Positions 25,096 through 29,161 of a DNA stretch of 64,000 nucleotides are shown piece after piece. Origin of the DNA: Escherichia coli. GTDB taxonomy: Bacteria > Pseudomonadota > Gammaproteobacteria > Enterobacterales > Enterobacteriaceae. The DNA lies in NCBI RefSeq assembly GCF_016903815.1, contig NZ_CP069972.1; one strand, written 5' to 3'. The position numbers were made by a program, and so were the translations under genes. Positions within the stretch are counted from its first letter, which is position 1. Each line of letters starts with the position of its first letter. The notes under the pieces were generated by a model. The model was not told the origin of the DNA. It searched no databases and saw nothing but the letters and a program-made list of their open reading frames with translations.

Positions 25096-25130
25096 ACGTT
25101 TCCAGGCTTATCAGTCGACAAGTTCCCGGA

Positions 25131-25205
25131 TCAGTTCCAGAACAGCAATCAGCGCGTTTGCAACGGCAACTACTGCCCTGAGAACGATGATTAACAGATT
25201 AATCA
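25131..25205 (-). CDS. Candidate type I toxin-like hydrophobic peptide (24 aa, MINLLIIVLRAVVAVANALIAVWN)
   Basis: Not in ORF track (<60 aa); GGAG 8 nt upstream of ATG; almost entirely hydrophobic; sits beside repeated sRNA-like elements. Confidence 0.35.
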
Positions 25206-25277
25206 TCCGCTTCTCCATCACTGGAGGAAATCACCGTTGCTTACTCTTACATTGCCTGTCACAACGGCACTTTCAGT

Positions 25278-25464: not shown

Positions 25465-25551
25465 GTTAGTTGAAAAGAGATTTCCTCCGGTCAGGGCCAC
25501 CCACTCTGTAACGGAACAGTAAAAAAACCGACCTCACCAGTCGGTTTTTTT
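25465..25551 (+). ncRNA. Candidate ~85-nt small RNA (repeat copy 2 plus terminator)
   Basis: TATTAT -10-like box just upstream; repeat core then strong terminator 25521-25551. Confidence 0.3.
25521..25551. terminator. Bidirectional Rho-independent terminator
   Basis: A7-AACCGAC-loop-GTCGGTT-T7. Confidence 0.65.
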
Positions 25552-25704
25552 ACATCTGTTGTTTCTCAAAATCCGTCCGACATGCCCGTCACACCGGGGA
25601 AACTCATGCTCTGAATCAGAACCAACCATCTCAACTTTGCCGTCTCCTGAAAAAACTGGCACATTCAGTTCGATAACTACCCATAAATACAGAGAGAAAA
25701 TCCG

Positions 25705-26027: not shown

Positions 26028-26180
26028 TTAACGTTTAACTTCGTAGGCTAACGTTGCCACAAGCACTGTGTTTCCCTGCTGGAGCCGGAGTCCGCAAAGC
26101 GAATCCCTCACCATCCAGACAAAACACAGAATCGTCACACAGATGACGATTAACATCATTAAAAACGTTCGCTGTGGCAT
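26028..26180 (-). CDS. pndA: Hok/Gef-family type I toxin, PndA-like (50 aa)
   Basis: Not in ORF track; translation MPQRTFLMMLIVICVTILCFVWMVRDSLCGLRLQQGNTVLVATLAYEVKR with GGAGG RBS; single TM plus conserved Cys typical of Hok family; hairpin 25996-26018 downstream. Confidence 0.8.
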   Translation of the reverse strand: MPQRTFLMMLIVICVTILCFVWMVRDSLCGLRLQQGNTVLVATLAYEVKR

Positions 26181-26212
26181 CATAGCCCCTCCATTGCCTT
26201 ACGGCGGTTATC

Positions 26213-26295
26213 GGGCTACTATAATGTTGTCTAGGCATTACAGTAGAGCCCTTGGTTGATTGATAAAAAAATCTCCAGGGGCTTTCTGCTGTATA
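26213..26295 (+). ncRNA. Candidate Sok/PndB-like antisense RNA region over the toxin leader
   Basis: TATAAT-like box at 26220-26225; lies antisense to the expected mok/pndC start upstream of pndA; exact ends not determined. Confidence 0.35.
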
Positions 26296-26510
26296 CCGTC
26301 CACAAAACGCTTTCGGCATACAGCCTCAAGCGCCCGCAGCTATTCTAACGACTTTCGTATCGGTAACAATCCTTTTAACCAGCCCCACACATCTTTCGGA
26401 CATGGTGAGTACAAAAGGCTGCGCTCTCGAACATTTGACATTGAAAATGATTCAGGTGACAGCCTGAATGTAGCAGGAGTCCCCGTCCTTCTGGCATAGA
26501 AGATGTCAAC

Positions 26511-26591
26511 GGGCTACTATAATGTCGTTCACGCATTACAGTAGAGCCCTTGGTTGATTGACAAAAATCTCCAGGGGCTTTCTGCTGTATA
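26511..26591 (+). repeat. Second copy (~85% identical) of the sok-like segment
   Basis: GGGCTACTATAATG...CATTACAGTAGAGCCCTTGGTTGATTGA...TCTCCAGGGGCTTTCTGCTGTATA shared with 26213-26295. Confidence 0.6.
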
Positions 26592-26748
26592 TGGTTTAGT
26601 TAACAAAGAGAGCCAGTGTTCCACTGAGCAAAACCAGTAGCTATTCATGCTTACAATTATCTTCTCCATATCTGAAATAACTCAAACAGCCCAATAGAAA
26701 CATATTGTTACATCTAAGATCTTGAAAAGACCTCTTTGAGAAATCAAT

Positions 26749-27735
26749 ATGAGATCACGGTATGTTGATAGGATAATATATATGAAGAAACTATTGATTC
26801 GATTAATACCTGATGCAATATATGAGGCTCTGGAAAAGACAGCTCTGCATTCTGAACGCTCCCTGGAAGCACAGGCCAGATATATCCTTAGTTGCTCCGT
26901 AGATAATGAAAAACAATTAACTGGTGGTGAACGCTATCAAAGAGAAATAACCGCGCGTCTTAATCAAGCGTTATCAGAAGCTAATGAGGTCATAACAGCC
27001 ATTAATCTTGTTCCCGCAAGAATTGCAGAACAATTAGGCCATCATGACGCCATAGAATCCGAAAATTGGTTCACCGGAAATGCTGTTCCTAGCTTTACAG
27101 AGCTTGACGAATTAAGCGATATCTTTGGATGCTCTCCAGATTGGTTAAAGTTTGGCGAAAATGTACCTTATCCAAAGAGTTCTAAAGGAAGGATAAACTG
27201 GAATCGTGGCGGAGAAAAAGATATCGATGCACTTTTAGAGCCTGACAACAAAGGTCGTAAAGTCTCATCTATTCATATTTTCAGGGTAAATGAATCTGGC
27301 AATATACTAATACTGAGAGAATTTGAAAACAGCATAACTACAGATTTTTTCTCAACAAACCTTTACTTATCAGACAAAGAAAAAATAGGACAGGGCGGAT
27401 TCCACGACCTGGTCGATTTCCTTGTAATTTTACAATCCCTTTATTTAAAATATATAAATAGCAATCTGTTAGTGAAAAGCTATAACATTAGCCAATATGT
27501 ACTGGATTCCTGTTATAAGAGCGGAGAAAAGCACCCCATAACTATATGTAGTGCAGGTGAGACAAGTACCTGGTGGGAAGACATATGGCATGAAGACATG
27601 ATAGCTCAATCGAGGAATAATGAGTCCTACTTCTGGGATGGTGACAAACCTCTTATTGATAGCCTTCATAAAGAACTTCAAAAAAATAACAGATTAAAGC
27701 CAAACAGTGAGTTAGATATGCCACTAATTGGTTAA
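26749..27735 (+). CDS. Composite DNA-binding protein: N-terminal Arc/MetJ-type RHH, central XRE-like HTH, ~170-aa C-terminal domain of unknown function (328 aa; alternative start 26782)
   Basis: RHH pattern LLIRLIPDAIYEALEKTALHSERSLEAQARYIL; HTH-like ARIAEQLG...GNAVPSFTELDELSDIFGCSPDWLKFG; AT-rich. Confidence 0.55.
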   Translation: MRSRYVDRIIYMKKLLIRLIPDAIYEALEKTALHSERSLEAQARYILSCSVDNEKQLTGGERYQREITARLNQALSEANEVITAINLVPARIAEQLGHHDAIESENWFTGNAVPSFTELDELSDIFGCSPDWLKFGENVPYPKSSKGRINWNRGGEKDIDALLEPDNKGRKVSSIHIFRVNESGNILILREFENSITTDFFSTNLYLSDKEKIGQGGFHDLVDFLVILQSLYLKYINSNLLVKSYNISQYVLDSCYKSGEKHPITICSAGETSTWWEDIWHEDMIAQSRNNESYFWDGDKPLIDSLHKELQKNNRLKPNSELDMPLIG

Positions 27736-27952
27736 ACACCAATTAAAGATTATCTAGCTAAAACAACATCGTACACGCATACTGCAAAGCCCTTGGTGAG
27801 TTAATAGAAGAATTACTAAGGGCTTATAAAAAATATATACCCCCACATTGGTGACACATTAAAATATTTTTTGTTGATGTGTTACCAGCCTGACCCAAAA
27901 ACAATTTTTAATCTTTCCGTTCGATTTAAATTCCAGAAATGGAGACTTTGTC

Positions 27953-29161
27953 ATGTCTTACAATCGACAGCCTGTCGCAGAAGATCCTATGCAGATATGG
28001 GGCGCTGTTGGTGTCCTTCTTATCCTGCTGCTATTCGTCATATGGTTATTCTTGCCGGAAGTGGTTTACACCAGCTGCCTGATTCTTCATACCTTATGGG
28101 GACTGGTCGACTGGGGACCATTTCATAACTATGCAGCACCACGATACAACCTGCTTGCCATGACCGGTAACAACGCCGCCAACATAAGCTATAGCCAGTG
28201 GGTTAACGTCATGGAACAGACCATAGGTATTCTGTGGATGTACCTCTTACCTGTGACACTCTGGTGTTTGTGGGAATGGTATCAACATCCGGGACAAAGC
28301 CGTTTCACCCGCAGACCAGTAGATATTACCCGACTGCCACACATCTTTGCTTCGTTATCCCCTGCTATCGCCCCTGTACTGGCAGATGGTGATCCGAAAA
28401 AACTCTTTCATGGTGGTAAACGACCTGAACGGCGGGTTGCTCTCACCCCGGAAGCATTTGTCGAACAGCATACTCTCATCACCAATATGCAGCTCGATGT
28501 TGCAGCTGCAAGACGATGTTTCATGGCCCAGTTGGGTAAACCTTTAACGTCCTGGAAAGACATGGCACCACATGAAAAAGCGCTCTTTGCCATATTTGGC
28601 CTTCAGTATTTCCTGGATGATCGGAAGGCAGCATTAAAGCTCATGGATACACTGAACCTCTCATGCAGAATTAAAAGCAAACGGGACAGCGGGAAATTCT
28701 GTACCCCTGTTTATTCATTGGCCAAATCAGCTTTCCAGAGCGTGATTAAAAGCAACGGAGCACAGCAATGGCTGAAACAACATCGCTACGTCCGCAGTGG
28801 GCTGGTCTGGCTGTATGCACATGACCTGCGGCTTACGCCACCCAACTGGATTTGGCTGAAAGGCGTGGACAGAACGCTGTTTTATGCATTACACCGCGCC
28901 AATACCACGAAAGGATTTATTGAAGGCGCTGGCGTGGTGGCCGTTGCACGTGCAGAGGCCGAAGCCATGCGTTTTGGTCTTCCCTGCCCTGAACCCTGTG
29001 TTGATGAAGCGGTGGAAGGCTTACGGCGGGATATGCTCAGTCTCGGTCTTATCTGGGATGAACCACAACCAGATCGCGACCGGAAACGCCGCATCCTGAC
29101 CAACTGGTCCCTCACCGACGACATCCTGCCCCGCACACCTGCTACAGACAACGAATTCTGA
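27953..29161 (+). CDS. trbA: TrbA-like inner-membrane T4BSS protein (402 aa)
   Basis: GGAG RBS; N-terminal TM helices; precedes trbB/trbC; symbol by synteny. Confidence 0.6.
   Translation: MSYNRQPVAEDPMQIWGAVGVLLILLLFVIWLFLPEVVYTSCLILHTLWGLVDWGPFHNYAAPRYNLLAMTGNNAANISYSQWVNVMEQTIGILWMYLLPVTLWCLWEWYQHPGQSRFTRRPVDITRLPHIFASLSPAIAPVLADGDPKKLFHGGKRPERRVALTPEAFVEQHTLITNMQLDVAAARRCFMAQLGKPLTSWKDMAPHEKALFAIFGLQYFLDDRKAALKLMDTLNLSCRIKSKRDSGKFCTPVYSLAKSAFQSVIKSNGAQQWLKQHRYVRSGLVWLYAHDLRLTPPNWIWLKGVDRTLFYALHRANTTKGFIEGAGVVAVARAEAEAMRFGLPCPEPCVDEAVEGLRRDMLSLGLIWDEPQPDRDRKRRILTNWSLTDDILPRTPATDNEF

Follow-up and report, generated by a model that had tools for sequence, protein, structure and literature searches.

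What is the role of a gene that lies between the hok-like pnd locus and trbA of an IncI1 plasmid, and whose product belongs to a family known by domain labels only? We considered this question for a 64,000-nucleotide stretch of Escherichia coli contig NZ_CP069972.1 (RefSeq assembly GCF_016903815.1), hereafter the window, which is part of an IncI1 plasmid and is 100% identical to E. coli plasmid pT247A over positions 26400-28000. Its gene order is traY-excA-...-dqlB-...-Hok/Gef (pndA)-gene under study-trbA-trbB-trbC-nikB, and the gene under study ends 218 bp 5' of trbA. The product, WP_001257838.1, is labelled 'FitA-like ribbon-helix-helix domain-containing protein' or hypothetical in RefSeq, and a literature search by this accession returned no paper. 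Our results show that the gene is a selected, horizontally acquired accessory cargo of the IncI1 pndA-trbA slot and that its product is a member of a conserved and widespread family. What is new here is a putative ribbon-helix-helix (RHH) regulator with an unrecognised C-terminal module.

The distribution of the gene sets it apart from the plasmid backbone. The gene region was found in 102 of 1467 PLSDB plasmids (~7%), the latter number being the IncI-type plasmids that matched any part of a 1.6-kb query, and the gene was found in 103 of 5426 complete E. coli genomes (~2%), at 104 places of which 102 were on plasmids and 2 were chromosomal. In the IncI plasmid pSEEH1578 trbA follows directly after the Hok gene, so that the slot is empty, as it is in most IncI1 plasmids, and in pESBL-EA11 finQ (1619-2704) occupies the same slot as positions 26378-27905 of the window. 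An earlier note on this DNA, made from the sequence alone, had proposed a horizontally acquired cargo; the carriage in 102 of 1467 plasmids, the empty site in pSEEH1578 and the presence of finQ in pESBL all support this proposal, and the presence/absence check across IncI1 plasmids identifies the gene as accessory and not as conserved backbone. The pndA-trbA site is thus a recurrent cargo slot, and a Salmonella IncI1 study has described there a finQ insert of 1250 bp, together with a duplicated copy of the intergenic sequence beside it (PMC8004404). The donor of the insert was sought through the flanks of the gene and none could be identified, because both immediate flanks are confined to the same ~103-104 IncI1-type plasmids. 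The AT-richness relative to the flanking genes that the earlier note had reported was also confirmed, with a GC content of 0.381 (0.324 at third codon positions) for the open reading frame (ORF), compared with 0.510 (0.514) for trbA and 0.510 for the whole window.

The 328-amino-acid ORF at 26749-27735 (+) is found in the window as it had been described, and its translation probably begins further downstream. All orthologues and database gene calls start at MKKLL/MQRLN, MKKLL corresponds to the ATG at 26782 in the window, and an AGGA lies 9 nt 5' of this ATG. Comparison with a 98%-identical allele revealed 3 changes, 2 of them non-synonymous, in the first 11 annotated codons, and 14 changes (9 synonymous and 5 non-synonymous) in the remaining 317. 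Given the orthologous starts and the faster change in the close allele, codons 1-11 (26749-26781) are probably untranslated and ATG 26782 is probably the true start of a 317-amino-acid product. Judged by the 9 synonymous against 5 non-synonymous changes, the ORF is under purifying selection. Full-length orthologues with 41-57% identity occur in Serratia, Yersinia and Klebsiella. The gene is unmentioned in the transposon-sequencing (TnSeq/TraDIS) papers on IncI1 plasmids that we consulted, and the pESBL plasmid studied there carries finQ at the same site.

A family with an unassigned core

The C-terminal domain is the largest part of the protein and the one that the earlier note could not assign. 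This assessment was confirmed by our profile searches. No match in this domain was obtained from Pfam, NCBIfam, PADLOC or PHROGs with the whole protein, nor from PDB sequences, for which both the protein and a profile of the domain built from 32 sequences served as queries. Moreover, a Foldseek search of the full model against AFDB50 returned only unnamed family members, all of the same architecture and named by domain only, from Acinetobacter, Pseudomonas, Haemophilus, Vibrio, acetic acid bacteria and others. When the profile of the C-terminal domain was compared with 1.84 billion representatives, 109 proteins were obtained at E<=1e-3 (representatives clustered at 50% identity), mostly 290-350 amino acids long with the domain at residues ~150-310. 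Using tblastn, relatives were found on 646 PLSDB plasmids (401 in Klebsiella, 114 in Escherichia), 543 of which are conjugative; among the matches listed (40 PLSDB rows), all are called 'hypothetical protein' except one 'transcriptional regulator'. The genome-collection scan was made with a subset of the alignment and the pattern WWEDIW[DH]. No full-length relative was found in sequenced phages. The composite of RHH, putative helix-turn-helix (HTH) and unassigned domain that the earlier note had recognised is real, but with 109 representatives and relatives on 646 plasmids it is the architecture of a family rather than an unusual fusion. This family is common on clinically relevant plasmids, and for its largest domain no structural relative could be detected.

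The AlphaFold2 (AF2) model of the full-length protein (pLDDT 78.8, pTM 0.73) is reasonably confident as a description of a defined domain arrangement, and the C-terminal domain modelled alone gave similar values (76.6 and 0.75). The predicted domain starts with a three-stranded meander, which is followed by a long helix, a fourth strand and several helices. In the numbering of the 317-amino-acid form, the near-invariant positions of the protein are R59, L60, A82, W121, L122, R168, G173, S197, G203, G206, P252, W264, D267, W269 and W285, a set that includes the IGxGG and WWEDIW motifs. Those among them that fall in the C-terminal domain (R, G, S, G, G, P, W, D, W, W) bear no likeness to a known catalytic set, and the 'effector-like' character once suggested for this domain is therefore unsupported. 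An RNase H-like or DEDD exonuclease fold was also considered; since the first strands are without conserved acidic residues, we did not file the domain as an RNase H-like nuclease.

At the other end of the protein, the N-terminal RHH anticipated by the earlier note is recognised by the Pfam model FitA-like_RHH (PF22513, independent E-value 3e-6, amino acids 15-48 of the 328-amino-acid form). Family statistics were calculated on 80 full-length members, 66 of which match RHH profiles at E<=1e-3 (FitA-like in 44 and Arc in 22). The sequence of the RHH strand, KKLLIRLIP, has the basic character that is usual for such strands. The RHH is followed by a long linker helix in which R59 and L60 are conserved in at least 90% of the 80 sequences.

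The central segment is more ambiguous. That it is an XRE-type HTH, as had been claimed, agrees with matches to the PHROG repressor families 4, 8 and 3037 (E=5e-5 to 2e-4), with family-level matches to HTH_3 (9/80 members at E<=1e-3 and 37/80 at E<=0.1) and with the four short helices that AF2 predicts across the segment, ending at WLKFG. The match of this protein alone is weak, however (HTH_3, PF01381, E=0.06; DicA, E=0.004). In canonical XRE proteins (lambda Cro, 434 Cro, P22 C2 and SinR) the recognition helix is polar, with a neutral to basic charge, whereas the putative recognition helix of the window protein (amino acids 87-99) has a net charge of -3. Among the 80 members the mean charge of this helix is -2.1; it is net negative in 90% of them and net positive in 1%. 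Because the helix is acidic in 90% of the members, the HTH is probably not a second classical DNA reader, and the idea of two DNA-binding modules in one protein is accordingly not supported in that form.

The N-terminal module can also differ between members. In three of them (one metagenomic, one from Undibacterium and one from Duganella) the RHH is replaced by a TIR-like N-terminus of ~170 amino acids, and in two others by a transmembrane N-terminus, while the RLN motif of the linker helix is kept in both variants. The TIR-like N-terminus weakly matches the CAP12/Pycsar TIR family (PF10137, E~6e-3) and PADLOC TIR models (E 0.02-0.05), and PF10137 is annotated on four listed homologues of it with 53-62% identity. 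Searches of PDB sequences and NCBIfam with this N-terminus gave no support. These replacements suggest that the conserved core begins at the 'RLN' helix and that the N-terminal module is exchangeable. The TIR-like domain itself is part of a large family, with 399 matches that are mostly without Pfam annotation.

Weighing the possible roles

In the light of these features, we see an even chance that the gene encodes a stand-alone RHH repressor borne by mobile elements, in which the acidic HTH and the C-terminal domain form a new sensing or oligomerisation core that governs DNA binding. The RHH would dimerise and bind operator DNA, most likely in the AT-rich region upstream of its own gene and possibly also at other promoters of the plasmid or the host. 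The HTH and the C-terminal domain, on this proposal, would not read DNA but would act as a sensing or oligomerisation module, and the binding of a partner protein or a small ligand to this core would switch the N-terminal output.

The genomic neighbourhoods bear on this proposal. Homologues are found on plasmids, in an integrative and conjugative element (ICE), in Tn7-like cargo, at prophage edges and in chromosomal islands. One lies in an IncP-like kor/kfr region, one beside phage tail genes at an apparent prophage edge, and one beside apparent Tn7-type transposition genes, which were recognised by reading the translated neighbour ORFs and not by profile search. All-against-all clustering of the neighbour ORFs of 28 loci revealed no conserved partner, and only a serine recombinase recurs, at variable distance; the gene is therefore taken to act alone. 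No coupled downstream gene was found outside one Klebsiella subfamily. In these Klebsiella plasmids (L003, 8052-8261; also L004-L007 and L013) an 8-nt overlap at the stop codon of the homologue links it to a 69-amino-acid DUF7706 gene, an arrangement suggestive of translational coupling; neither the IncI1 version nor the other subfamilies have this gene. Taken together, the context points to a role in plasmid-host or inter-element interactions rather than in core transfer or replication, and conflict between mobile elements is a possible biological role.

Several points weigh against a repressor of this kind. No homologue has been characterised, so that DNA binding, dimerisation and ligand are all inferred. 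The beta-strand of the RHH is not formed in the AF2 monomer model, residues 1-10 having no strand. The argument from the acidic helix compares it with canonical XRE sequences and not with a computed control. The TIR-like proteins themselves match weakly (E about 6e-3), and this assignment is supported only by Pfam matches of some homologues with 53-62% identity. Moreover, no strong sigma-70 promoter was detected upstream of the gene, and a search of the upstream region for operator repeats gave none that was convincing, just a shared 9-mer. This 9-mer, TTGTTACAT, lies at a similar upstream distance in the window and in two other loci (Serratia L008, and L047), and might be a promoter or operator element, although this is a weak lead. 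Palindromes of the type GTTACAGGCCTGTAAC, which contain GTTACA, lie 5' of the Rosenbergiella homologue.

The alternative that survives best, although we consider it unlikely, is that this one gene makes up an immune or abortive-infection system, or a fused toxin-antitoxin, in which the core would sense a phage or plasmid, the RHH would restrain expression or activity, and activation would harm the cell or the invader. An addiction or defence function had been raised by the earlier note. The RHH is of the FitA/VapB antitoxin type, and the TIR-like and transmembrane N-termini are swaps of the kind that is typical of defence sensors with interchangeable effectors. Homologues also keep suggestive company. 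In a Serratia ICE (L008, 8465-13076) the homologue lies between a VgrG/PAAR effector island of a type VI secretion system (T6SS) and an operon of the cyclic oligonucleotide-based antiphage signalling system (CBASS), another homologue has a parA-like partition gene on one side and a type I restriction-modification system on the other, and some adjoin RES, HigB or Gp49 toxin modules. However, such a vicinity is expected for any mobile-element cargo. Moreover, PADLOC gave no match (PADLOC-DB v2, 0 families at E<=1), the 28 loci have no conserved partner gene and hence no conserved toxin partner, the C-terminal domain is without a recognisable catalytic residue set, most members (66/80) have a DNA-binding N-terminus only, and the family is essentially absent from sequenced phages. 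A type II toxin-antitoxin has an adjacent co-transcribed toxin gene, whereas the next gene of the window is trbA. The defence or addiction function, in the form proposed by the earlier note, is not supported by the partner-gene and PADLOC results. As an observation on the Serratia ICE itself, its CBASS operon consists of a SMODS cyclase, HORMA, an AAA ATPase and DUF6602, and is followed by a regulator pair of HTH and M78 peptidase.

A bolder version, which we regard as decidedly unlikely, is that the core of 'RLN' helix, acidic pseudo-HTH and WWEDIW domain is an unrecognised sensor module of mobile-element conflict systems with interchangeable N-terminal outputs, mostly an RHH repressor and in a few members a membrane anchor or an NADase of TIR-like type. 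In that case the IncI1 gene alone would serve for surveillance of, or competition with, phages or plasmids that enter the cell, and such a device would be carried on hundreds of clinically important Enterobacterales plasmids.

It is very unlikely that the gene is a fertility-inhibition or plasmid-competition factor, that is, a functional replacement of FinQ that would bind the DNA, relaxosome or regulator of a co-resident plasmid and lower its transfer or maintenance. The occupation of the pndA-trbA slot by finQ in pESBL and related plasmids and the strong plasmid association of the family (646 PLSDB records, 543 conjugative) would fit such a factor, as would the existence of relaxosome accessory factors among RHH proteins and the weak TraY matches in the family (4/80 members at E<=0.1, 0/80 at E<=1e-3). 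Nevertheless, the protein has no sequence similarity to FinQ, the argument is one from position alone, and homologues are also found in chromosomal islands, in Tn7-like elements and beside prophage genes. Regarding FinQ itself, NCBIfam has no model for it, and the current RefSeq annotation gives it only 260 amino acids, compared with the 361-amino-acid product in papers. Least probable of all is a plasmid maintenance accessory, either an RHH protein binding a centromere or res site or a protein that regulates the neighbouring trbABC or pnd genes: homologues are often near ParA, ParM/StbA and resolvase genes (on Klebsiella plasmids near ParM/StbA, a resolvase, HigBA and UmuDC) and the gene, which lies just 5' of trbA, adjoins a promoter and a sok copy that derive from pnd, but no partner ATPase or recombinase stands at a fixed distance, most IncI1 plasmids transfer and persist without the gene, and the occupant of the slot in pESBL was scored non-essential for transfer (PMC4288162).

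An RHH repressor governed by its own core is the reading that we favour, and the regulator or sensor that the earlier note had suggested is thus still the best guess. If it proves to be a plain autoregulated repressor, its interest would be modest; it would be higher if the core senses conflict between mobile elements. The slot of the gene otherwise holds a fertility inhibitor; the role of the gene could reveal a new mode of plasmid self-regulation, competition or invader sensing, and finding this role would name a domain of unknown function.

Features around the gene

The coordinates of the insert, of the gene and its domains, and of the flanking elements are collected in Table 1.

Table 1. 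Features of the pndA-trbA region of the window, with the positions of the TIR-like family members in their own loci.
Feature	Position	Strand	Basis or remark
AT-rich insert, ~1.5 kb	about 26378..27905		Alignment with empty-site plasmid pSEEH1578; GC profile; flank distribution
Coding sequence, 317 aa (probable start)	26782..27735	+	Start inferred from orthologues; annotated start 26749 = 328 aa; RefSeq WP_001257838.1
RHH domain, FitA/VapB-antitoxin type, aa 1-45, presumed DNA-binding head	26782..26916	+	Pfam PF22513
Long linker helix, aa 46-72, near-invariant 'RLN' motif, first element of conserved core	26917..26997	+	AF2 helix 48-70
XRE-like HTH, aa 76-126, ends in conserved WLKFG motif	27007..27159	+	Weak profile matches, four predicted helices
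C-terminal domain, aa 133-305, no assignable family or fold	27178..27696	+	Motifs GNILILREF, TNLxLS, IGxGG, HP, WWEDIW, YFW
TTGTTACAT, 9-mer, candidate promoter/operator element	26704..26712	+	Common to upstream regions of three orthologues
Hok/Gef coding sequence of pnd locus	26028-26183	-	
Original sok/pndB region of intact pnd (hok-like) locus, reference copy	26212..26295	+	Rfam sok 134 bits at 26178-26335
Second, orphan sok/pndB-like antisense RNA gene	26510..26593	+	TATAAT box and stem-loop
13-bp stem hairpin just 3' of stop codon	27787..27825	+	Third copy of repeat family D1
TIR-like-N-terminus family members	L029 5539-6870; L031 5284-6786; P0050		

The duplicated sok-like segment that the earlier note had seen upstream of the gene is indeed present, the second copy being 92% identical to the first (77/84, one 2-nt gap). 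Both copies are predicted to form the same stem-loop (-31.7 kcal/mol, z -6.0 for the second and -31.2 kcal/mol, z -5.5 for the first). The Rfam sok model scores the second copy (minus-strand match 26484-26691) at 38.4 bits, under the gathering score of 59, and no Hok-like ORF was found on the minus strand behind it. It therefore lacks one element of a hok/sok type I locus, the Hok ORF, and keeps the RNA stem-loop and the -10 box. Because of the kept stem-loop, the Rfam score of only 38 bits and the absence of a Hok ORF behind this copy, the insert looks like a 3'-truncated second hok/sok-type locus fused to the gene, which is consistent with capture through recombination at hok/sok sequences. 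The orphan copy could provide a higher dosage of antitoxin RNA or could be a recombination scar. The hairpin 3' of the gene (-19.6 kcal/mol, z -3.7) is 72% similar over 46 nt to the sok terminator hairpin, so that sok-like hairpins may bound the insert on both sides. It has no U-tract, and a search for an intrinsic terminator at the gene detected none.

Further observations concern this region. A match to a hok-mRNA-like promoter (26685-26656, minus strand) is directed away from the RHH-HTH gene. The two sok-like copies, each 84 nt long, form a direct repeat with a spacing of 298 bp that brackets the pnd mRNA promoter region, and recombination between them would delete this region. For a pMLST7 IncI1 plasmid, a 2026 preprint reported parallel deletions that were independent of insertion sequences and affected sok, pndC and trbA. 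One IncI plasmid (L015, 2205-3380) carries an IS200/IS605-type TnpB gene, of the RNA-guided endonuclease family, between hok and the RHH-HTH gene, and this insertion removes the sok-like duplicate region 5' of 26672. Finally, an AgrB-type antisense RNA (Rfam 55 bits, gathering score 40) lies near dqlB, the two positions being 25466-25553 (+) and about 25111-25206 (-), and dqlB is annotated as a DinQ-like type I toxin in the identical plasmid pT247A. Together, the RNA and dqlB make up a further type I toxin-antitoxin locus, which lies between excA and pnd.

Comparison with known systems

The N-terminal ~45 amino acids of the protein resemble the FitA/VapB antitoxins (PF22513), and those of other members the Arc/Mnt repressors (PF03869); like them, the protein is borne by mobile elements. 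Unlike FitA/VapB antitoxins, it has no cognate PIN or other toxin gene adjoining it, and a core of ~270 amino acids, made of helix, HTH and C-terminal domain, replaces the short toxin-binding tail. The likeness to XRE/CI regulators (HTH_3; PHROG 4, 8 and 3037) lies in the helix pattern and the C-terminal 'WL.xG' motif, with weak to moderate matches. In contrast to these regulators, the recognition helix is acidic, the HTH is internal, between the RHH and the unassigned domain, and there is no S24 peptidase or other known partner domain.

FinQ occupies the same pndA-trbA site, and both inserts are about 1.2-1.5 kb long and single-gene, with duplicated pnd-side intergenic sequence. Homology between the two was considered and rejected, the proteins being unrelated (best BLASTP E=8.4).

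TIR domains of PF10137 occur in the conflict sensor-effectors Cap12 of CBASS and PycTIR of Pycsar. The few family members in which a TIR-like, PF10137-related N-terminus replaces the RHH resemble these systems, which suggests that the core may be able to drive interchangeable outputs. The window protein differs from them in having no TIR domain and no cyclase or signalling partner nearby, and fold searches with the core gave no similarity to STING, SAVED or CARF.

The nearest working analogy for the proposed mechanism would be NikR or MetJ, in which a ligand-binding part controls an RHH repressor. The C-terminal domain of the window protein is without sequence or fold similarity to the metal-binding domain of NikR or to any solved structure, and an extra XRE-like HTH is interposed compared with both repressors. 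Nevertheless, the logic that they may share with the window protein is that of a dimeric RHH that reads DNA and whose activity is set by a C-terminal domain for sensing or oligomerisation.

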